From Candidatus Parcubacteria bacterium (GTDB lineage: Bacteria > Patescibacteriota > Minisyncoccia > JAHIHE01 > JAGLIN01), in NCBI GenBank assembly GCA_023132875.1, contig JAGLXN010000007.1, positions 1,262 to 65,261 of the forward strand: DNA of 64,000 nt, in the 5' to 3' direction. The notes beneath the pieces are model-generated. The model was not told where the DNA came from. It was given only the letters and a program-made list of their open reading frames with translations, and ran no database searches. Of this stretch, positions 3,629-57,820 are shown piece by piece (the first letter of the stretch is position 1; every line of letters begins with the position of its first letter). Both the position numbers and the translations under genes were made by a program.

Positions 3629-4600
3629 CTAATCCGCGAAATTCTGGATAAAGATCATTCCATATTCTCCTCCATCAATTACGCCAATACCTACTCTATG
3701 AAAAAAAGGATGAAGAATATTTTTTTTATGTCCCGAACTGTTCATAAGCCCTTGATGCGCGGAAGCTAGGTCTTTGGAAAGGGCAAGATTTTCGCCTGAA
3801 AAATTAAATTCAACACCGCCTTCTTTCATACGATCAGAAGGACCTTTTTCTTCAAGATTTATATGCGAAAAATATCCTTTGTTAAACATATCTATCCCGT
3901 GTTTTCTTGCTGTCTCTCTAGCTATTTCATCCGCAACAAGAGCTTTACGCCCAAACAAAACTCTTTCTTTGTTAATCAGTTCCAGCATATCATTTTCTAA
4001 TTTTTCATTGATGCTAAGATCAGAAACCGTAAAACCAAGATCTATTCTCTTCTCGTCTCCAGTTTCCACTGTTAAAAAATCCAGCTTATCCATTGTTACG
4101 CTAAGCGCGTCTCCAAATATATTATGCAGGCAATTATTTATTTTTATCGGATCTCCCGCGACAAAATCGCCGAAGGTTGAAGAATTAAATTCATTTTTTA
4201 AAAAGTATGGAAGAGAAAACGCGAAAGTTATGGACATCAGCAGAAAAACAACAACCGCGCTATAAGAAAATGAGGCAAATCCGCTTGCGATTCTTCTCTT
4301 TATTGATTTATTAATTATAAACAGCGAATCTGGAAGCGCTTTGCGAGAAGCCACCAAAAGTATAAATTTAATAATAAACATATTAAGAAAAAATCCCATA
4401 ATATTAGCGTATGCCGTTTCTATCGCAAAATTTTTCGTAAAAAAAGAAGCAGTATAGCTGTAAGTTAAAAAAGCAATAAACAAGGAAAATAAAAAACTTC
4501 CCATATTAACTACAATGGAATAAAAGCCTCTTTTAATCCCATCAGCAAAATGAATAATTAAAAAAAATATTATTATGAGATCTATCCAATTTCCAAGCAT
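3629..4600 (-). CDS. CvpA-like membrane domain fused to CAP/SCP (YkwD-like) domain protein
   Basis: N-terminus resembles colicin V production protein CvpA (MLGNWIDLIIIFFLI..GIKRGF). C-terminus carries the bacterial CAP-domain motif GHKKNIL..HRVGIGV. Confidence 0.55.
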   Translation of the reverse strand: MLGNWIDLIIIFFLIIHFADGIKRGFYSIVVNMGSFLFSLFIAFLTYSYTASFFTKNFAIETAYANIMGFFLNMFIIKFILLVASRKALPDSLFIINKSIKRRIASGFASFSYSAVVVFLLMSITFAFSLPYFLKNEFNSSTFGDFVAGDPIKINNCLHNIFGDALSVTMDKLDFLTVETGDEKRIDLGFTVSDLSINEKLENDMLELINKERVLFGRKALVADEIARETARKHGIDMFNKGYFSHINLEEKGPSDRMKEGGVEFNFSGENLALSKDLASAHQGLMNSSGHKKNILHPFFHRVGIGVIDGGEYGMIFIQNFAD

Positions 4601-4720
4601 GTAATCATTTTAACATTTTAACATATAAACATTTTAACATTAGAACTTCCTCGCTTTAACACGTTAATAAAAGTTTATGGATGTTAGAATGTTAGTATGT
4701 TAGAATGTTAGTACGTATAT

Positions 4721-6334
4721 CTATTTATACTTAAATCTATCAACAACCGCGTAAGCTATATTATCAGAATGATCTCCAATTCTTTCTAAATTTGTCAAAA
4801 TCTCAGTAAAATATTTTCCTTTCTCTAAAGAACATATTCCTTTATTCATTCTCTCTAAATGATTGCTATGAGATTTTTTTACTATTTCATCTACTTTATT
4901 TTCATGCTTTATAATTTCATAAGCAAGCTTTAAATTATCTTCTTCTAAAGATTTTATAACAAGATTTTGCATAATTTTTAATTTACCGAATATCGCAGTG
5001 AGTTCTCGGATCGCTTTCTCGGAAAATTCCATTCTGTCTTCTTTTATATCAACGAACAATTCAGAAACGGTTAAAACATGATCAGAAAGATGCTCTAAAT
5101 CAGTTGTAATGTGCATCAAGCTATAAAGCTTCATTAGATCTTTTTTATTAAGATTTTGCTGTGAAATCTGTGCTAGATATTCTGAGATTTTTCCTGTCAT
5201 TTCGTCCATTTCTTTCTCGTATTCTTCAACTTTTTTAAGCAAATCAGTTTTATTTTCAAAAAATATTAATTTTGATACTTCTAACATTTCATTTACAGTT
5301 TTTGCCATATCCACAACAGCACGATTAGCTTGTCCAAGAGCAACAGAGGGAGTATAAAGTAATTTTCTACTCAAATAGGAAAGCTTGGACTCTTCAGTCT
5401 TAATCTCCGGAGTATGTTTGTTTATAAATTTTGCTATAAAAGGAATAAACGGAAGAAATATTAAAGCGGTTATAATATTATACAGCGTATGCCCATTTGC
5501 TATTTGCCTTCCCATGTCATCTGAGGTAATGCTTGCTAAATAATCAAAGTATTTGAAAAACAATAAGAAAAATATAATTCCGAATATATTAAATAACAAA
5601 TGCATAATAGCAATGCTGGTCAAAAAACCTTTTCGCTTGAGACCCATATAAATAACTTTCAAGCTTGAACCAAGATTTACGCCCAAGATCATAAAAAGAG
5701 CCGTGCTGAGATCCACAATTTGCGTTGCTCCAAGCGCGACAATAATAACGGAAGTCGCGCTGCTGCTTTGCAGTAATAATGTAAGAAAAGCTAAAATAAA
5801 TATATAAGCAATTTTGACAGAACTAAACTGATTGATAAAATCAATAGCTATTTGATTATGGGAAACAGATTGCATTCCGTTAAAAACAAAATACATTCCC
5901 AGGAATAAAAAACTGAATCCGATAATAGCTTCCCCAATATTCTTTTTTATTTTACGGACAGCAAAAATGTGAATGAAGACTCCGACCGTTAAAATCGGCA
6001 AAGCATAAATTCCTATCTGAAAAGAAGCAAGCTGAGTTGTTATTGTGCTTCCAATATTAGCGCCAAGCATAGCGGAAACAGCTCCGCTATAACCCAAAAG
6101 ACCAGCACTCATAAATCCGATAAGCATTGTAATTGTAGTGCTGCTGCTTTGAATTACGGCTGTTATTCCCGTACCAATCGCTAATCCCTTTATTGGATTA
6201 TCATTCGTTTTTCTAAGCGTTTCTTCCAGCTTAAACCCCATGATTTTTTGTAAACTAACACCCAAAAGATGAATCCCATAAAGAAGAATGGCAAGCCCTC
6301 CTACTATTTCAAATATTGTTGTTAGTTCAAGCAT
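4721..6334 (-). CDS. Na+/phosphate cotransporter family protein with C-terminal PhoU-like domain
   Basis: Multi-TM N-terminal half with the GxxxxSSSxT repeats typical of NptA/YjbB. C-terminal helical PhoU-like region. Confidence 0.8.
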   Translation of the reverse strand: MLELTTIFEIVGGLAILLYGIHLLGVSLQKIMGFKLEETLRKTNDNPIKGLAIGTGITAVIQSSSTTITMLIGFMSAGLLGYSGAVSAMLGANIGSTITTQLASFQIGIYALPILTVGVFIHIFAVRKIKKNIGEAIIGFSFLFLGMYFVFNGMQSVSHNQIAIDFINQFSSVKIAYIFILAFLTLLLQSSSATSVIIVALGATQIVDLSTALFMILGVNLGSSLKVIYMGLKRKGFLTSIAIMHLLFNIFGIIFFLLFFKYFDYLASITSDDMGRQIANGHTLYNIITALIFLPFIPFIAKFINKHTPEIKTEESKLSYLSRKLLYTPSVALGQANRAVVDMAKTVNEMLEVSKLIFFENKTDLLKKVEEYEKEMDEMTGKISEYLAQISQQNLNKKDLMKLYSLMHITTDLEHLSDHVLTVSELFVDIKEDRMEFSEKAIRELTAIFGKLKIMQNLVIKSLEEDNLKLAYEIIKHENKVDEIVKKSHSNHLERMNKGICSLEKGKYFTEILTNLERIGDHSDNIAYAVVDRFKYK

Positions 6335-6342
6335 GGAATTAA

Positions 6343-6450
6343 ATTGTTAGATTGTTGAATTGTTGAATTGTTGAATTGTTGAATTGTTGAATTGTTGAAT
6401 TGTTGAATTGTTGAATTGTTGAATTGTTGAATTGTTGAATTGTTGAATTG
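6343..6450. repeat. perfect 8-bp tandem repeat (TTGAATTG)x~13, i.e. (CAATTCAA)n on the minus strand
   Basis: Read directly. It abuts the nptA-like start codon (6334, minus strand) and forms its 5' leader. It creates the spurious ORF 6322..6864. Confidence 0.95.
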
Positions 6451-6899
6451 TGCTATGCATATGTAACAATAGAACAATTTAACAATAGAGCAATATAATT
6501 TTATTTTAATACTTCTGTGTTTTATGTAAAGTGTATAAGTAGTTTTGTCTTCAGTAGTGTTGAACAGATCCTGATATCCATCAAGATAAACTCCGTATAT
6601 TTTCTGCTTGTTTATATGTTTAAATGTTAATATGTTAAAATGATTTATGGGGTTGACAAATTTTCTCAGTGTGATATAGTGTTTCGTGAAGTTGAATTTT
6701 GATATTTGATTAAAATGAGACTTCAAAAATAAAGAATCTATGCAATGCACCATGAGCTGTATGCAACTGCACAAAATGCAGTAGATCAAGGAGTAGTGAG
6801 AAGAAGCATGAAATCGGAAATAGCAGAAGTCGGAAAAGAAAAATATGATACCTTTGTAAGCCACTCAGGCCCCGCATTCCAGCTACACCGAAGATAACT

Positions 6900-7840
6900 G
6901 GTACCCAAGATCCCGGCATTTGATTAGCAACAATTTGAAAAAGTTGTTGCAGAGAGGTGAAAATGATTTGAAAATCGCCCTTTGAAAAGGGTAAGGTCCG
7001 TTTCGGCTTTGTTTGCTAGGAACAAGGGACCTCAAAAAAGACAAGAAAAAATTCCCGCTCTGAAGCGGAAAGACCTGCTCGATCTCGAGGCGTACACATT
7101 CTGGTTATCCAGAACTGCCCGAGAAGTTTGCCGGTCATGAGGAGCGATGGACTGCGCCAAGTTGCATGTAATGAAAGTAAGAATGAATGGCGACTCCATG
7201 TACGCTCCAGAAGAAAGGTATTCCCGCTGTCCCCTCGGAATATGAGGGACGAAGAAAAGATTAGTAAAGAAGAAATTTGTAATAGTGGGACATACTAAGA
7301 TCGGTGGGAGCTTTGTTGGCTACTAGTTCGGGAAGATCGTTTTACCCGAAAATAGCGCCATGACGAGACCGCTGGTCAAAAATTTAAGATAAGATGATTG
7401 GAATTTTGAAACATTTTCTGTATCTCTTTCTCAACTAGAATAGATATTATTTGCTCTCTCGACCTAAAGGATTGGCGGAGAAAAAAGAATAAGTAAACTG
7501 TTCTAAAGTCAAGAGAGATTTTGGCGCCAAGAGGAAATTTACAAAAAATTCGACACCCCCATTTCAATCACATGTGTTGAACAAAAATTAACTGGGCACC
7601 TGCCGCCCGAATACCAACGAGGAGATCTGCATGATTTTTAAAAAAATAAAATTCTAACAAACCGCTCCCTTTCTTTTAGGGAGCTAACGGAGCAGCGAAA
7701 AAGTCTGTAGGTAGCATATCAAGCTTTAAATGACTATGTCAGCCTACTACTTATTCTTCAAACCGGCACCAAGGCCTGTTTTTTTTGTTGTTTAAATTAT
7801 TTAGAGGTGATGGGCACCTTGAGGATGCCCGTCACCAAAA
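6900..7840. ncRNA. GC-rich (~45-50%) ORF-free region, candidate structured RNA gene(s) of unknown class
   Basis: The 940 bp have no ORF longer than 70 codons in any frame. GC is markedly above the ~30% genomic background, and the region has many local stems (e.g. aggtcc...ggacct at ~6995-7040). I could not match tmRNA, RNase P, SRP or rRNA signatures by eye. Confidence 0.35.
7803..7838 (-). terminator. stem-loop immediately downstream of tgt
   Basis: ggtgatgggcacc..ggatgcccgtcacc gives an 11-bp stem with one G:U, 4 bp past the tgt stop. No clean U-tract, so terminator function is uncertain. Confidence 0.3.
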
Positions 7841-7841
7841 A

Positions 7842-8996
7842 CTACACCGACTTTCTAATCCTCTTCATCATCTCTAAATAAAAATAAATATTATGAATGC
7901 TTGCTAATCGCAGAGCGAGAAGTTCGCCGGAAACAAATAAATGCCTTAAATACGCGCGGGAATAATTTTGACAAGTGAAGCATCCACAATTTTTGTCAAT
8001 TGGTTTTTTGTCATTTTTAAATTTCTCATTTGTGATATGAATGATTTCATAGAATCGCGACGATGTCGGAGTTCCCTTCGGGAGATTCCGACAAGGCGAG
8101 AAATTTTCACTTTTAGACTTAAACTTATATATCGTTCCATGCCGCGCGTTTCTTGTTGGAATAACGCAATCAAACATATCAATCCCCCTTGAGACAGCGT
8201 CGACAATTTCTTCTGGTTTTCCTACTCCCATCAGATATCTGGGCTTATCTTCCGGTAAAAACGGAATTGTCCAATCAACAACTTGAAACATTTTTTTACT
8301 TGACTCCCCTACTGAAACTCCTCCAATCGCGTATCCATTAAAGCCGATTTTAACCAACTGTTTTGCCGATTCTTCTCTGAAATTTTTATAAATTCCGCCC
8401 TGAACTATCCCAAATAATAATGACTTATTTTTGCCAAGTGCCTTATTTTTTTTGTCAAAATATATCTTGCATCTCTCCGCCCATCTTGTTGTTAGTTCTA
8501 AGGACTCTTTAATATATTTTTTACTCGCTGGATACGGCGCGCATTCATCAAGAACCATTATAATATCGCTTCCTAAATTCTGCTGAATCTCAATTGATTT
8601 TTCGGGAGTTAGTAAATGAGAAGAGCCGTCAATATGAGATTTGAATTCCGCTCCTTCTTCGGAAATTTTCCTCATTTTTGCCAGTGAAAAAACCTGATAG
8701 CCCCCGCTATCTGTTAGAATTGGACCGCTCCAATTCATAAATCTATGAAGCCCGCCAAGTTTTTTAATTAGCTTATCAGACGGCCTCAAATATAGATGAT
8801 AAGTATTGCCAAGAATAATCCGCGCGCCGATTTTTTTCATCTCAATGCTATCCAATGATTTCACGCTTCCGCAAGTCGCAATCGGCATAAAACACGGGGT
8901 CTTGATGATCCCGTGTTTTGTTTTTATTTCTCCTAGCCGAACGCTGGATCTTTTTGATTTTTTTATTATTTTGAAAGACATATAATCTAAATCCAA
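7842..8996 (-). CDS. tgt: queuine tRNA-ribosyltransferase
   Basis: Full-length Tgt similarity with the C-terminal Zn site CGCFTCQNYSRAYLRHL. Confidence 0.9.
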   Translation of the reverse strand: MDLDYMSFKIIKKSKRSSVRLGEIKTKHGIIKTPCFMPIATCGSVKSLDSIEMKKIGARIILGNTYHLYLRPSDKLIKKLGGLHRFMNWSGPILTDSGGYQVFSLAKMRKISEEGAEFKSHIDGSSHLLTPEKSIEIQQNLGSDIIMVLDECAPYPASKKYIKESLELTTRWAERCKIYFDKKNKALGKNKSLLFGIVQGGIYKNFREESAKQLVKIGFNGYAIGGVSVGESSKKMFQVVDWTIPFLPEDKPRYLMGVGKPEEIVDAVSRGIDMFDCVIPTRNARHGTIYKFKSKSENFSPCRNLPKGTPTSSRFYEIIHITNEKFKNDKKPIDKNCGCFTCQNYSRAYLRHLFVSGELLALRLASIHNIYFYLEMMKRIRKSV

Positions 8997-13685: not shown

Positions 13686-13785
13686 TTGAATTGTTACATT
13701 GTCAAATTGTCAAATTGTCATCGCATCTATAAATCTTTTATTGCCTAACAATTTAGCAATATAACAATTTAACAATGTAGTTTAT

Positions 13786-14172: not shown

Positions 14173-14291
14173 AGTTTTGATTAGTGAATTTTTGAATGCT
14201 ATTACATTGTTGCATTGTTAAATTGCTAAATTGTTATGCGTGGCATAGCAATACAGCAATTTAACAATTTAACAATTTAACAATTTAAATT

Positions 14292-17479: not shown

Positions 17480-17515
17480 AACTCCAGAAATATTGTTAAA
17501 ATGTTTAAATGTTAA

Positions 17516-18907
<1,392 letters not shown>

Positions 18908-20252: not shown

Positions 20253-21204
20253 CCAATCCCTCAAAATTTCCACCAATAAACTTAAATTACAAAACATTCC
20301 TTCCGCCGACCTTGATGCGGAAGTTTTGTTATTGGAAGCGTTAAATAGAAGTAGATATAAAAAATTAGACAAAAGCTGGTTGTATATAAATGATAATTAC
20401 GAATTAAACAAAAACGAAGAAAAATTATTTAATAGTTTTATAAATCAAAGATTAAAAAACAAGCCAGTTGCTTATATAATAAATAGAAAAGAATTTTATG
20501 GCTACGATTTTTATGTTGACGAAAATGTTCTGATCCCCCGCCCTGAAACAGAATTCATTGTTGAAGAAGTTTTGAAAATTTTAAACCCCCTTAGCCCCCC
20601 CATTCGGCTATCGCTCGGAGCAGGCTCTTATCAGAGGGAAAATAGCGATTTCACTCTAATTGACATTGGAACTGGTTCGGGTTGCATAATAATAAGCGTT
20701 TTAAATGAGCTTGCAAAAAGAAAAGGAGATGATGTTGTAGAAAACGCTTACGCAAATGATATTTCTTTAAAAGCAATCAAAATCGCAAAACGCAACGCAA
20801 ATAAATATAACTTGAACAAAAAAATAAAATTTGTCGCAAATGATTTTGAAAAATTTTTAAATAAAAAAAATATTTATAACTCCGACGAACTTGTCATTAC
20901 AGCTAATCTTCCATATATAAAAAATGATGATTACAAAAATCTTTCTAAAAATATAAAAAAGTACGAACCCAAGATTGCGCTTGCAGCGGGAAAAGACGGA
21001 CTCGTCTATATAGAAAAATTAGTTGATTCTGTATTAAAAATCAAGAAAAAATACAAGCAAAAAATATATGTTCTTATTGAAGCAGATCCAAATCAAATGA
21101 GTAAAATAACTGCTATAATAAACAAAAAATCAGCTAACGCGCGTATTAAAATAATTAAAGATTTGAGCGGAAAAAAAAGAATTGCCGTATTGTCATATTG
21201 CTAA
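20242..21204 (+). CDS. prmC: release factor glutamine N5-methyltransferase PrmC/HemK
   Basis: LIPRPETE, the SAM motif IDIGTGSGC, and the NPPY-equivalent NLPY. Start placed at the MNIHQSL ATG (20242); the ORF-track N-terminal extension reads through the leader repeats. Carries a GC-rich ~23-aa insertion at ~20585-20655. Confidence 0.8.
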   Translation: MNIHQSLKISTNKLKLQNIPSADLDAEVLLLEALNRSRYKKLDKSWLYINDNYELNKNEEKLFNSFINQRLKNKPVAYIINRKEFYGYDFYVDENVLIPRPETEFIVEEVLKILNPLSPPIRLSLGAGSYQRENSDFTLIDIGTGSGCIIISVLNELAKRKGDDVVENAYANDISLKAIKIAKRNANKYNLNKKIKFVANDFEKFLNKKNIYNSDELVITANLPYIKNDDYKNLSKNIKKYEPKIALAAGKDGLVYIEKLVDSVLKIKKKYKQKIYVLIEADPNQMSKITAIINKKSANARIKIIKDLSGKKRIAVLSYC

Positions 21205-21267
21205 ATTGTTATATTATTATTGCGTTATGCATAACAATTTGACAATAGAGCAATTCAACAATTTAAA

Positions 21268-25863: not shown

Positions 25864-26254
25864 ATTTTTGTTTTGTTTTAAGTTATTTTAAGCTTAAATT
25901 TAATAATTTAAACTACTACACAATATAACTTATGTTAATATATAATAGCTATTATGTCAAGATAAAGACATTTTAACATATGAACATACTAACATTTTAA
26001 CAAGAATTTTTATTTAGTTTTTTGAAATATGATAATTTAAATTATGTTAAAATGTTTAAATGTTACTATGTTAAAATGATTTTGGTATTGACGAAAAATC
26101 AATTTAAATATATAATTAAAAAATCGTTTCTAGTCACGGAAGACTAGGTTTTGCAAAAACCTAAGTAAGAGGAGAAAAACTAAAAACTACAATAAAGTCT
26201 TCTGCTGATTGAACTAAAACAACTAAAACAAAAATAAAAAAACAAAACCGGGAT

Positions 26255-43563: not shown

Positions 43564-43777
43564 CTTAACATTTTAACATATTAACATTTTAACATAATTT
43601 ACACTAAAATTTCTGCCAAATATTTTGACGAATTATAATATTACTAAACTATCTAAATATCTTTACATTTTATACTTTCAAAAAGCCAAACAAAAAATCT
43701 TGTTAAAATGTTAAAATGTTAAAATGTTAGCATGATACTTATATTATAATACATTTTTAAAAAATAAAAAAGCCCTT

Positions 43778-44155: not shown

Positions 44156-44281
44156 ACATATTAAATTGTTAAACTGCCAAATTGTTAAACTGCCATGCCA
44201 TATATAACAATACAGTAATTTAACAATGTAGCAATGTGATTTTTATTAAAAACGCCAATCCATAAATTTCCAAATAAAAAT

Positions 44282-46520: not shown

Positions 46521-46701
46521 TTATTTTAAACTTAATTTTACAATTAACTTTTCTAAGTAATCTCTCAAATTGTTACATTGTTCTATTGCTAAATTGTTAT
46601 GCATAGCATAGCAATCCAATAACTGCAATATGATAATGTAATCTTACTGAATATATGCCGTGCATAACAATTTGACAATTTAGCAATTTAGCAATTTATT
46701 T

Positions 46702-48078
46702 TTATTTCTTTAATCTCTTCTTAACTTCCGCAACAACACTTTCCATCACAACAACTTCCTGCATCCCGCTCTCCATATCTCTAATAATAACAGTGTTATC
46801 TATCGCTTCCTTTTGTCCGATAATCAAGGCAATTTTCGAATTCGATCTATTTGCCATTCTTAGTTGAGATTTTATACTGCCGCGTCCAAGAGATTCACCA
46901 ACTATAATATTATTATCTATTAGATTATCAAAAAGCTTTAAAATCTTTTTTCTTGCCATATTTCCCAATTGCACAAGAAAAACATCTTTATTTATTTTTC
47001 GCTCCAAATGAAATCCATTTTGCAATAAACGCTCTACCGCTCTTTCAACTCCAAATGAAAATCCAATAGCGAAAGTATCCTCTCCTCCCAAAATTTGGAC
47101 GAGATCGTCATATCTTCCTCCGCCGCCTAATGAAGATTGCGCACCCTCAGCATTGCTTTCCCATACCTCAAAAACAGTTTTTGTATAATAATCAAGACCG
47201 CGAACAAGGCTAGAGTTCAAAACATAAGAAATTTCAAGTTCGTCCAAAAACTCCAGAACATTTTTGAAGTGATCATGGCACTCTTCGCAAAGATGATCAA
47301 TAATTTGCGGAGCCGCTGAAGCAACCTGCATACATTTCTCTTCTTTGCAGTCCAAAAGACGCAATGGATTATCAGTTAATCTTCTTTTACAGTCCATACA
47401 TAATTTATTTATTTTCATTTCATAATAATCAGTCAAAAGCTTTTTGTAGGCTGGCCGGCATTCACTGCAACCAATGCTATTAATTTGAATAGTTGTGTTT
47501 TTTATACCAATCTTCTGAAAAATTTTCCATGCTAAATATATGATCTGCGCGTCAATTGCGGGACACTCATCTCCGAAAATTTCAAAGCCAAACTGATGAT
47601 GCTGCCTATATCTCCCTGCTTGCGGCTTTTCATAGCGAAACATCGGGCCTTCATAATAAAGCTTTACTGGCTGAGACCATTTACTCATTCCATTTTCAAT
47701 ATAAGCTCTGACAACACCGGCAGTTCCTTCCGGCCGCAAAGAAACCTTATCACCTCCTCGTGTTTCAAAAGAAAACATTTCTTTTTCTACTATATCAGTA
47801 ATTTGCCCTACGCCTCTATGAAACAATTCAGTGTGCTCTAAAATAGGAGTTTCAATCCTCCCAAATCCAAAATCGCCGCACAATTTCCTGCCGTTTTCTA
47901 ACACGTGATTCCAGATAAGCTGTTCTGGCGGTAAAATATCTTTCATGCCCTTAATCGTTTGAATCGGAGTCAATTTTTTTCTTCTTCTTTTTATTTCTTT
48001 TTTATCCTGTTTTTTTACTCGAGGCATAATTTTAAGTTGAAAGTTTATAAAGTTTGTAAAGTCAAAAGTTTGGTCCAA
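46702..48078 (-). CDS. hisS: histidine--tRNA ligase
   Basis: Class II motifs (FRYEKPQAGRYRQHHQFGFEIFG), a HisRS-specific region and the C-terminal anticodon-binding domain. The likely true start is MPRVKK (ATG at 48027); the upstream codons are translated leader repeats. Confidence 0.9.
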   Translation of the reverse strand: MDQTFDFTNFINFQLKIMPRVKKQDKKEIKRRRKKLTPIQTIKGMKDILPPEQLIWNHVLENGRKLCGDFGFGRIETPILEHTELFHRGVGQITDIVEKEMFSFETRGGDKVSLRPEGTAGVVRAYIENGMSKWSQPVKLYYEGPMFRYEKPQAGRYRQHHQFGFEIFGDECPAIDAQIIYLAWKIFQKIGIKNTTIQINSIGCSECRPAYKKLLTDYYEMKINKLCMDCKRRLTDNPLRLLDCKEEKCMQVASAAPQIIDHLCEECHDHFKNVLEFLDELEISYVLNSSLVRGLDYYTKTVFEVWESNAEGAQSSLGGGGRYDDLVQILGGEDTFAIGFSFGVERAVERLLQNGFHLERKINKDVFLVQLGNMARKKILKLFDNLIDNNIIVGESLGRGSIKSQLRMANRSNSKIALIIGQKEAIDNTVIIRDMESGMQEVVVMESVVAEVKKRLKK

Positions 48079-56882: not shown

Positions 56883-57710
56883 TTAAATTGTCTCTGCTTT
56901 TGGATAAGATCCTAAAACAACTATCTCTTTCACTTTACTAATTACTTCTGTTAACGCATTTTTGAAATTTTCATCATCACAATGACCATCTGCATCAACA
57001 AAGAATGTCCGAGAACTCGATATCTCTTCTGCAGGAAGAGACGAAAGCATTGTCATATTTATTTTGTTCTTTGTAAATATGTGCAAAACTTTTTCTAAGG
57101 AACCAGCCTTATCCTCTACCTTAAAGAATAATGTTGTTTTATCTTTTCCCGTAGGTTTTGTTTTATTTTTATTTAAGAGCATAAATCTTGTTATATTATC
57201 TCCTTGATCATTTATATCTCTTTCTATAATCGCAATATTAAATTCCTTTGAAGCTTCTTCAGAGCCAATCGCTGCAATTGACTTATCCTTTGTTTTTGAA
57301 GCCAACTCAACGGCTTCTGCCGTGCTATTAGTTATTTTTATACAAATATCATTTAATCCTCCTAAATATCCAATACACTGCATAATCCCCTGCGAATGAG
57401 AATAAACAACTTTAACATCTTCTATCTTGCCATAACCAACAAGACACTGTTGAATTTTAAGATATAGTTCTCTAATACCGTAAAATGGCTTCATCAATTG
57501 TAGTTCTTTTAGCACATCAATAACTGCCTTTCCTGTTGAATTTGATATAGGAACAACAATTTCATCTACTTCATTATTTTTAAAAGCCTCAATCAAACTT
57601 TTAAAGTCTGAATGAAACACTATTTTAGTTTCATTGTATTTCTTTGCAAACTTAATAGTAGCAACATGAGAAAAGGTCGCTGCTGGACCTAAGCATCCGA
57701 TTGTTATCAT
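56883..57710 (-). CDS. pheA: prephenate dehydratase (PDT + ACT domains)
   Basis: GPAATFSH, NITRFMLL (TRF motif) and ACT-domain ESRP-equivalent LSSLPAEEI are present. Start reassigned to MITIG (ATG at 57710), which sits 9 nt after AAGGAGG. Confidence 0.75.
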   Translation of the reverse strand: MITIGCLGPAATFSHVATIKFAKKYNETKIVFHSDFKSLIEAFKNNEVDEIVVPISNSTGKAVIDVLKELQLMKPFYGIRELYLKIQQCLVGYGKIEDVKVVYSHSQGIMQCIGYLGGLNDICIKITNSTAEAVELASKTKDKSIAAIGSEEASKEFNIAIIERDINDQGDNITRFMLLNKNKTKPTGKDKTTLFFKVEDKAGSLEKVLHIFTKNKINMTMLSSLPAEEISSSRTFFVDADGHCDDENFKNALTEVISKVKEIVVLGSYPKAETI

Positions 57711-57744
57711 CTTATGATTCCTCCTTATATTGTAAATGTGCAGA

Positions 57745-57820
57745 ATGTCCTGGGTAAGATTTGAACTCACGACTCCATGCTTTTCACACAGACTCTATGC
57801 CAAACTAAGACACTAGGGCT
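57745..57820 (-). other. tRNA-like fragment (T-arm plus 3' acceptor half), possible tRNA pseudogene or integration-site remnant
   Basis: Minus strand reads gtgag-TTCAAAT-cttac followed by ccaggac, i.e. a T-stem-loop plus a 7-nt 3' acceptor strand. The matching 5' acceptor strand (gccctag) pairs at only 5/7, and the anticodon loop is non-canonical. Confidence 0.3.

Follow-up and report, generated by a model that had tools for sequence, protein, structure and literature searches.

A predicted modular structured RNA gene between an nptA-like gene and tgt in a Patescibacteria genome

Locus, composition and relatives

The window analysed here consists of 64,000 nucleotides (nt) of a Candidatus Parcubacteria contig (JAGLXN010000007.1 of assembly GCA_023132875.1, positions 1,262 to 65,261), AT-rich Patescibacteria DNA with an overall GC content of 32.7%. 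Between two co-oriented genes, an nptA-like gene and tgt, lies a gap of 1507 nt (6335–7841) without open reading frames (ORFs), the longest such gap in the window when those of at least 150 nt are compared. We consider it probable, on sequence evidence, that this gap holds an independently transcribed structured RNA gene, located on the plus strand at 6686–7786 and belonging to a family absent from Rfam 15. The extent of the unit, approximately 1.1 kb, is the most likely one among those considered.

In the preliminary description positions 6900–7840 had been singled out as an island of 45–50% GC with no coding capacity. The island is real, in that the gap is both the longest and the most GC-rich of those compared (0.375 overall and 0.41 in its transcribed part, against 0.18–0.37 in the other ORF-free gaps of at least 150 nt), and all six frames of 6900–7840 are indeed broken, the longest ORF there having 63 amino acids (aa) and the longest stop-free run 101 aa. 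Its figures and boundaries need correction. The GC content quoted was too high, since in 200-nt windows values of 42–48% are confined to 6800–7300 and give way to 35–40% beyond; over 6900–7840 it is 41.7%, with a peak of 48%, and some coding stretches equal this when 940-nt windows are compared. The coherent unit also begins some 215 nt further upstream, at approximately 6686. Suppression of any one stop codon opens no gene-sized frame; an alternative genetic code was rejected for this reason and because table 11 leaves the flanking genes intact. No frame of the unit encodes a recognisable protein.

Related loci were found by way of nptA homologs, which form a graded series from 93% to 64% identity, and their contigs were compared; percentages beside the names of relatives denote nptA identity to the window. 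The nptA-like protein has an identical copy on an 831-kb ENA metagenome scaffold, and its nearest named homologs belong to metagenome-assembled genomes labelled ‘Candidatus Pacebacteria’ and ‘Patescibacteria group’. The tgt gene is too conserved to lead to close relatives: in a tgt-anchored scan of GTDB genomes the best relative was 58% identical and none of 80 loci carried an RNA homolog. The order tgt-gap-nptA, with an ORF-free gap of 900–1600 nt, is found in L084/85 (90%), L086 (81%), L088 (76%), L089 (73%) and L094 (69%). In L176 (93%), the closest relative, the 1465 nt upstream of nptA are free of ORFs, and in L091/92 (73%) the gap is present and tgt absent. The gap is missing at the locus in L175 (85%), L090 (76%) and L093 (71%), and an nptA-anchored scan of JGI metagenomes yielded relatives at 67–76% identity without the element at this position.

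The features of the locus are as follows.

4721–6334, minus strand: nptA-like gene, a Na/Pi cotransporter-PhoU fusion (Pfam), intact
6653–6680, plus strand: putative sigma70-type promoter, TTGACA-16 nt-TATAGT with an extended -10 TG, matching 11 of 12 consensus positions
6687–6725, plus strand: P1, predicted 5' terminal hairpin, outer stem 6687–6693/6719–6725 (RNAalifold, 5 sequences)
6735–6786, plus strand: P2, predicted composite hairpin, outer stem 6736–6739/6783–6786, inner stem 6766–6771/6777–6782
6788–6897, plus strand: Shine-Dalgarno (SD)-like AAGGAG (6788–6793) and ORF1, ATG 6808 to TAA 6897, 29 codons
6927–7031, plus strand: three predicted hairpins, 6927–6950, 6977–6992 and 6995–7031 (z = -3.25)
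7043–7198, plus strand: hairpin-rich segment of ~156 nt with the highest GC and several local hairpins, in this genome only
7217–7296, plus strand: predicted long-range helix 7217–7229/7283–7296 enclosing hairpin 7229–7250
7299–7377, plus strand: module C, a central domain closed by a helix of 14 pairs, with hairpins inside it and the conserved stretch AAAAUAGCGCC
7387–7594, plus strand: domain also present in L176, with the C-rich motif ACACCCCCAUUUCAAUCAC (7552–7571; C-run 7556–7560)
7619–7657, plus strand: SD-like GAGGAG (7619–7624), a 6-nt spacer and mini-ORF2, ATG 7631 to TAA 7657 (MIFKKIKF)
7664–7697, plus strand: predicted hairpin GCUCCC/GGGAGC (7664–7684), then UAACGGAGCAGCG, giving a tandem GGAGC
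7701–7752, plus strand: 3' domain, stems AAGU/ACUU and GUAGGU/GCCUAC with apical hairpin UGAC/GUCA
7760–7786, plus strand: terminator-like element of conserved sequence, AAACCGGCA-N6-CCUG followed by U8
7806–7836, minus strand: strong hairpin, 6 nt beyond the stop codon of tgt, -23.5 kcal/mol on the plus and -20.3 on the minus strand
7842–8996, minus strand: tgt (Pfam), intact

Transcription unit

The site at 6653–6680 is the best promoter-like sequence of the region and the only good plus-strand promoter in 6200–8100; transcription is predicted to start from it at about 6686–6689. Its -35 hexamer TTGACA is invariant, and its -10 element kept, in L176, L084/85, L086 (two copies), L089, L091/92 and L094; conservation of the promoter thus covers 7 lineages. 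In L176 the promoter is 94% identical, and the AT-rich spacer just upstream of it is unalignable.

The element at 7760–7786 follows a pattern that recurs across the relatives, AAAC(C/U)GGCA-N6–8-CCUG plus a U-run, and is conserved in the window, L176, L084/85, L086, L088 and L094; L089 and L091 have forms related to it. A plus-strand scan of the region found no internal terminator, nor any internal promoter near the 3' modules. A promoter and a terminator of its own, the generic marks of a structured RNA gene, are present, though the terminator stem is weak. From end to end the unit would measure ~1100 nt in the window, 967 nt in L176, 624 nt in L094, 490 nt in L086, 436 nt in L084, 410 nt in L089 and 355 nt in L091.

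Secondary structure and covariation

Stem-forming segments had been noticed by eye, and sub-segments of the unit do fold better than their shuffles (z between -2.0 and -3.3). Alignment to related genomes, proposed in the preliminary description as a check, brought to light compensatory and wobble changes in several of the predicted helices. At the 5' end P1 comprises 7 pairs, 100% paired and with 2 compensatory, in the RNAalifold consensus of 5 sequences, and its stem may be recognised by eye in L086 (GAGGUC/GACCUC) and L089 (GAAGUU/AACUUC) also. P2, which is preceded by the conserved linker AAAUAAAGA, has 11 pairs, 4 of them compensatory; CUGCA/UGCAG becomes CUACA/UGUAG in L176, and AUCU/AGAU becomes GUCC/GGAC in L094. 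For the 5' domain as a whole (18 pairs; 5 sequences) 96.6% of the cells are paired and 6 pairs are changed on both sides, values which were reached by 0–2 of 500 shuffles; slid controls pair 29–40%.

Further downstream the comparison is chiefly with L176. The segment 6920–7043 has 26 predicted pairs, 7 of them with one-sided changes and none broken, and 7217–7296 has 17 pairs with 3 double changes (including C:G to U:A) and 2 one-sided changes, all kept, so that over the two segments 3 compensatory and 9 one-sided changes preserve pairing and none breaks it. Module C is common to L176 and L084/85 and has 25 pairs with 96% of cells paired; its closing helix is 100% paired in 4 sequences, 7 of its 14 pairs varying by G:U/A:U/G:C exchange only. 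The C-run at 7556–7560 is identical in L176 and predicted to be mostly unpaired (0.81 and 0.70), and a C-rich motif resembling ACACCCCCAUUUCAAUCAC occurs in L084 (CACCCCCAC). The hairpin at 7664–7684 is kept in L176 (with a 14-nt apical extension forming a stem of its own), L088 (CUCCUC/GAGGAG) and the first copy in L086. Finally, the 3' domain is common to L086, L088 and L176, with 2 compensatory pairs in the RNAalifold consensus, including GUAGG/CCUAC to GUAGA/UCUAC.

These changes fit the plus strand. Canonical pairs make up 96% (module C) and 96.6% (5' domain) there, as against 83% and 92% on the minus strand. In the minimum free energy (MFE) stems of the window substitutions keep pairing in 44–51% of cases on the plus versus 29–30% on the minus strand, a result to be read as a comparison of strands only, the slid-partner control not being meaningful as set up. 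The compensatory and wobble changes, fitting the plus strand only, are support rather than proof that several helices are kept, because each alignment contains 2–5 sequences and the structures were derived from those same sequences.

Sequence constraint

As a neutral yardstick we used the third codon positions of nptA, which are 76.6% identical between the window and L176. Identity to L176 is 84% in the 5' domain, 84% in 6926–7043, 88% in 7387–7500 and 85% in the terminator. The AT-rich spacer 6335–6640 is unalignable (44%). Positions 6808–6925 are replaced in L176 by unrelated sequence (40% identity) which resembles L094, the stretch from about 7043 to 7198 is present in the window only, and 7500–7760 is near neutral. 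Indels relative to L176 are of arbitrary lengths. The window-specific segment is absent from L176 and the other relatives, and had no homolog in any collection searched.

Searches for known RNAs, proteins and mobile elements

The covariance-model search placed the locus in no Rfam family. At the gathering score Rfam 15 gave no match at the locus, and one weak tRNA match elsewhere in the window; at E ≤ 10 the 4227 families returned only noise in 6200–8200, in L084 3950–4480 and in L094 5040–5780, and Rfam scans of eight related loci also gave only noise. The earlier failure to see landmarks of RNase P, transfer-messenger RNA (tmRNA), signal recognition particle (SRP) RNA or ribosomal RNA by eye agrees with the scans at E ≤ 10.

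Several known classes were considered individually and rejected. Bacterial RNase P RNA (models RNaseP_bact_a and RNaseP_bact_b, with P4 pseudoknot strands and conserved regions of the GGAAAGUCC/ACAGAANCCGGCUUA type) gave no match at E ≤ 10. A superficial resemblance to RNase P, CAAACCGGCA, allows on direct reading only 4 possible pairs with its candidate 5' partner, and a P4-like pairing of CCGG/CCAG with the terminator region amounts to 4 bp only. Nor does the locus behave like the essential single-copy gene of roughly constant size that RNase P RNA would have: the unit ranges from 355 to 1100 nt, L086 has it twice, and L175, L090 and L093 lack it at this position. ARAGORN finds no tmRNA in the window, and Rfam gives no match to one. 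6S and SRP RNA (~100–270 nt) are without an Rfam match and shorter than the 355–1100 nt seen here. A group I or group II intron or ribozyme was rejected in view of the lack of an Rfam match, the intactness of nptA and tgt and the presence of the unit's own promoter and terminator. The earlier suggestion of an intron-like element finds no support. OLE, GOLLD, ROOL, raiA and HEARO were without a match both at the gathering score and at E ≤ 10, and repeated GGA loops of the CsrB kind were not seen, GGA not being enriched and no loop motif recurring.

Among proteins, the 10 longest stop-free frames had no Pfam match above noise, and a search of 12 concatenated frames against 5.8 billion proteins left none of 7665 word-sharing candidates at E ≤ 10. 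A frameshifted protein homolog, named in the preliminary description as the finding that would speak for a pseudogene, was thus detected neither in Pfam nor in that collection. Since no Rfam, tRNA/tmRNA, Pfam or protein match was obtained, the pseudogene and known-RNA readings are unsupported. BLAST against phages and plasmids gave no match. Pattern scans of viral contigs gave 0, 1 and 37 matches, which we ascribe to chance because none has extended similarity. A self-search of the window showed the GC-rich core to be unique, only AT-rich upstream repeats recurring; as the core is not repeated, it is neither a repeat family nor the template/variable pair of a diversity-generating retroelement. 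A degraded foreign insertion, the other possibility raised earlier, is likewise unsupported in the absence of any protein, phage, plasmid or viral similarity.

Modular turnover

A mosaic of shared parts emerges from nhmmer: the 5' part is common to L084/85, L094 and L086, 7595–7796 is shared with L088 and 7699–7797 with L086. The segment 7297–7386 is common to L084/85 (nhmmer) and L176 (pairwise alignment). L086 (4378–6000) carries two tandem copies of the entire RNA unit, promoter included, with a period of 476 nt; the terminator is lacking from the first of them. The predicted RNA is modular, whole hairpin domains having been gained, lost, swapped or duplicated between close relatives. It is also dispensable, being absent at the locus in three relatives (L175, L090 and L093), and, as far as the sequences compared indicate, the family does not extend beyond a narrow clade of Patescibacteria of the Pacebacteria-like kind. 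In L175 (971–4741) tgt and the RNA are both missing and a DUF7619 gene adjoins nptA; in L093 (4298–7235) tgt adjoins nptA across a 196-nt gap. It follows from these two arrangements that the RNA is gained or lost independently of tgt.

Short ORFs and ribosome coupling

Two SD-like sites followed by short ORFs lie within the unit. That of ORF1 is found just after P2, ~100–120 nt from the 5' end. In four relatives ORF1 has 16–32 codons, in L094 it has 4, where a 28-codon frame opens from an AUG overlapping it, and in L086 it has 2, the stop standing at codon 3 in both copies. The peptides align, with in-frame gaps, as two sequence types (L176 with L094, and the window with L084) and share short motifs such as TIIP..QL.G. 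Substitutions are synonymous versus non-synonymous in proportions of 1 to 14 and 3 to 10, with no third-position excess, and no family was matched in Pfam or NCBIfam. ORF1 as a conserved protein was rejected for want of a signature of purifying selection, and as a sensor of queuosine-dependent codons because Asp, Asn, His and Tyr are not enriched.

The second site is the more regular one. GGAG, 4–13 nt, AUG and 2–8 codons plus stop are found in 7 of 7 lineages (MFLKIRF, MKKI, MF, MTQ, MTM and MRRF in relatives), where chance would give 0.04–0.25 per lineage. In every lineage a stable hairpin follows the stop of mini-ORF2, its 5' strand beginning 0–6 nt further on, so close that a ribosome at the stop would cover the base of that hairpin; the hairpins themselves are of unrelated sequence between lineages. 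The distance from stop to terminator is 80–280 nt. Among the 46 protein genes of the window 2 have an SD-like motif, and at most 5 under permissive start choice. Since the genome almost never uses such sites for its own genes, the strong sites in this unit are unlikely to be ordinary translation signals.

On the most economical reading the locus would be an accessory, strongly expressed structured RNA gene of a new family, evolving by the turnover of its domains. We propose with low confidence that this is a ribosome-coupled regulatory RNA, mini-ORF2 linking its 3' domain to ribosomes. A ribosome bound or terminating at mini-ORF2 would open the adjacent hairpin, and this opening would remodel the 3' domain and alter how far the pyrimidine- and C-rich tracts, or the terminator behind, are exposed. 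More broadly, and rather doubtfully, the locus may represent a new class of large, modular, ribosome-engaging RNAs in Patescibacteria, strongly expressed in a genome whose own genes are essentially SD-less and seemingly leaderless, whose mini-ORFs capture ribosomes or free anti-SD tails and thereby switch the fold, acting as a sensor or sponge of translational capacity and not as an mRNA or a classical base-pairing small RNA (sRNA).

AT-rich -10-like elements (TAACAAT / AACAATTTAACAAT or TGTTAAAAT) stand 5–10 nt before start codons elsewhere in the window, for example those at 4600, 6334, 13786, 14292, 16038, 17534, 43563, 44155 and 60229. The rarity of SD motifs and the position of these elements suggest that leaderless mRNAs are widespread in this genome.

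Alternative explanations

The view of the preliminary description, a structured RNA of a class not recognisable by eye, agrees with what was found: a conserved promoter and terminator, covariation fitting the plus strand and no Rfam match. Several observations weigh against our prediction of a single RNA gene. By itself the terminator stem is weak (-6.3 kcal/mol, z = -0.4), and the pattern scan missed it. An MFE stem at about 7460–7520 is not retained in L176. About half of the RNA (6808–6925, 7043–7198 and parts of 7500–7760) is unconserved even in L176 and evolves at or below the neutral yardstick. With 8 lineages and 2–5 sequences per alignment the covariation statistics are weak, the structures coming from the same sequences, and a covariance model built for the 5' domain found nothing beyond the sequences used to train it and a marginal match in L089. 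L088 has the 3' modules alone, without a recognisable promoter, so that a small RNA of its own might be encoded by the 3' part. The proposed coupling of the 3' domain to ribosomes is read from the geometry of the sequence. As a correction to the earlier view, the conserved SD-like sites with very short ORFs imply that the RNA may not be purely non-coding.

One alternative is a small-protein mRNA in which short peptides (ORF1 of 16–32 aa, perhaps also the mini-ORF) are selected and the rest is a long structured untranslated region that serves no purpose itself. GGAG, AUG and 16–32 open codons do occur near the 5' end in 5 of 7 lineages, alignment of the ORF1 peptides with in-frame gaps brings out short motifs in common, and one annotation pipeline calls a 50-aa gene here. 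We nonetheless regard this reading as unlikely: ORF1 shows no synonymous excess, stops at codon 3 in both L086 copies and yields peptides which match no family, neither the best-conserved nor the covarying parts fall within the ORFs, and the genes of this genome are normally without SD sites. Subdivision into several small RNAs, for instance one of ~250 nt at the 5' end (a leader or sRNA) and another of ~150–200 nt at the 3' end with filler between, would account for the patchy conservation in 5', central and 3' blocks, for the retention in L088 of 3' modules only, without a canonical promoter, and for the differing module combinations among relatives. It is improbable given the single good plus-strand promoter in 6200–8100 and the lack of an internal plus-strand terminator; structure and constraint are seen in module C and in the segments common to L176 as well.

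That the DNA is without function (a decayed gene, a foreign or mobile remnant, or a drifting GC-rich spacer) is in our judgement very unlikely. Large parts are lineage-specific (7043–7198) or replaced (6808–6925), the element is missing from L175, L090 and L093, and its GC content exceeds the genome mean, all of which one might expect of such DNA. Against this stand the lack of protein, phage, plasmid or viral similarity and of repeats elsewhere in the window, the conserved promoter and terminator, blocks more identical than third codon positions, and compensatory changes; the truly neutral neighbour, the spacer 6335–6640, is unalignable at the same divergence. Least probable of all, and close to dismissible, is a known RNA (RNase P, tmRNA, 6S, SRP, group II intron, or OLE/GOLLD/ROOL) so divergent that the models missed it. 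In reduced, AT-rich genomes an RNA gene rich in GC usually belongs to one of these housekeeping or large kinds, and patescibacterial RNAs are often divergent; yet none of 4227 families matched at E ≤ 10, not even with the shorter units of L084 and L094, and ARAGORN reports no tmRNA. An essential housekeeping RNA would also be an unlikely fit because of the length range of 355–1100 nt, the duplication in L086 and the absence from three close relatives.

If the prediction of a single structured RNA gene is correct, the locus would be among the first long structured RNAs defined in Patescibacteria (CPR, the Candidate Phyla Radiation), which hold a large share of bacterial diversity and are mostly uncultivated. 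To our knowledge hardly any regulatory RNAs have been described for them. The RNA would show an unusual mode of evolution, in which close relatives differ by entire domains gained, lost, swapped or duplicated, and the arrangement of SD site, mini-ORF and hairpin in an SD-poor genome would offer a testable handle on translation sensing and regulation in reduced cells. Should the locus prove to be only an mRNA for small peptides, or several sRNAs of the ordinary kind, its interest would be modest.

Comparison with known systems

Dual-function RNAs include RNAIII of Staphylococcus aureus, which has 514 nt and encodes the 26-aa delta-haemolysin, and SR1/SR1P of Bacillus. Like these, the predicted RNA would be a stand-alone unit of several hundred nucleotides, running from a strong promoter to an intrinsic terminator, with many hairpins, a short ORF behind an SD site near the 5' end, C-rich single-stranded motifs, fast evolution and a narrow taxonomic range. 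Unlike them it has an ORF1 peptide that is not conserved and a host genome poor in SD sites; it is up to twice as long, mini-ORF2 is far shorter than any known peptide product, and there is no homology in sequence or structure.

The resemblance to leader-peptide attenuators and ribosome-stalling leaders (trpL, pyrL, ermCL and the cat leaders) lies in an SD site, an AUG and a very short ORF so placed that a ribosome on it would melt the next hairpin, with a terminator downstream. In contrast to such leaders no co-directional gene follows the terminator, tgt being convergent in the window and the neighbour a different one in L091/92; the terminator is 80–280 nt from the stop, and 0.2–0.9 kb of structured RNA precedes the leader. 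A transcription attenuator of this kind would have a regulated gene downstream on its own strand, which is lacking here. The RNA belongs to neither the dual-function RNAs nor the leader-peptide switches, its nearest functional analogues.

With OLE, GOLLD, ROOL and raiA the unit shares a size of 0.4–1.1 kb, a GC-rich island in an AT-rich intergenic region and a predicted multi-domain structure with variable peripheral domains. It differs in having no covariance-model match, in being much less conserved and much more narrowly distributed, in showing no prophage or tRNA association and in possessing SD-AUG mini-ORFs. In SD-poor bacteria rare strong SD sites are used for autoregulation, as for rpsU in Flavobacteriia. 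A conserved strong SD-like site in an SD-poor genome is found here too and, by analogy, may sense ribosomes with a free anti-SD; it differs from the rpsU type in preceding an ORF of 2–8 codons inside a non-coding RNA and not a ribosomal protein gene.

The tgt hairpin and other observations

A strong hairpin placed at 7803–7838 in the preliminary description is real (7806–7836; z = -6.2 on the plus and -5.0 on the minus strand), and lies beyond the RNA's own terminator. L094 and L176 both keep it, with a change of G:C to A:U, and on the minus strand it is followed by U-rich sequence (UUUAUUU in L094). Given its place beyond the U-tract of the RNA and immediately past the stop codon of tgt, this hairpin is probably the terminator of tgt, outside the RNA.

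A direct repeat of 15 nt (14 of 15 identical) links 7120–7134, in the window-specific segment of the RNA, with 7916–7930 in the 3' part of tgt, and would make that stretch of the RNA complementary to tgt mRNA. The repeat may be due to chance.

A 31-nt AT-rich motif, ATGTTTAAATGTTAATATGTTAAAATGATTT, occurs five times (6616–6646, 4603–4640, 17501–17526, 26052–26082 and 43569–43596), directly adjoining a gene start in three of the five. After the copy at 6616–6646 an ATG at 6649 opens a 10-codon ORF which overlaps the RNA promoter, and the motif there may mark a second promoter upstream of it.

Just upstream of nptA (6347–6500) stands a long AT-rich palindrome, made up of about 13 tandem copies of TTGAATTG (read on the nptA strand, TCAACAAT) and, after these, of AACAAT copies in inverted orientation. 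L002, another contig from this sample, breaks at this repeat, 77 nt upstream of nptA. ATTGTT/AACAAT palindromes are also found at 13687–13776, 14183–14288, 21179–21264, 44162–44251 and 46568–46707 of the window, and outside it in relatives and a Kuenenbacteria locus (L013 10306–10436 and L085 5884–5972). They look like a genome-wide intergenic element, possibly a CPR-wide one.

The tRNA matched by Rfam (57746–57819, minus strand) scores 33.1 bits against a gathering score of 29 and is not reported by ARAGORN; it overlaps the 5' end of the ORF at 56883–57770.

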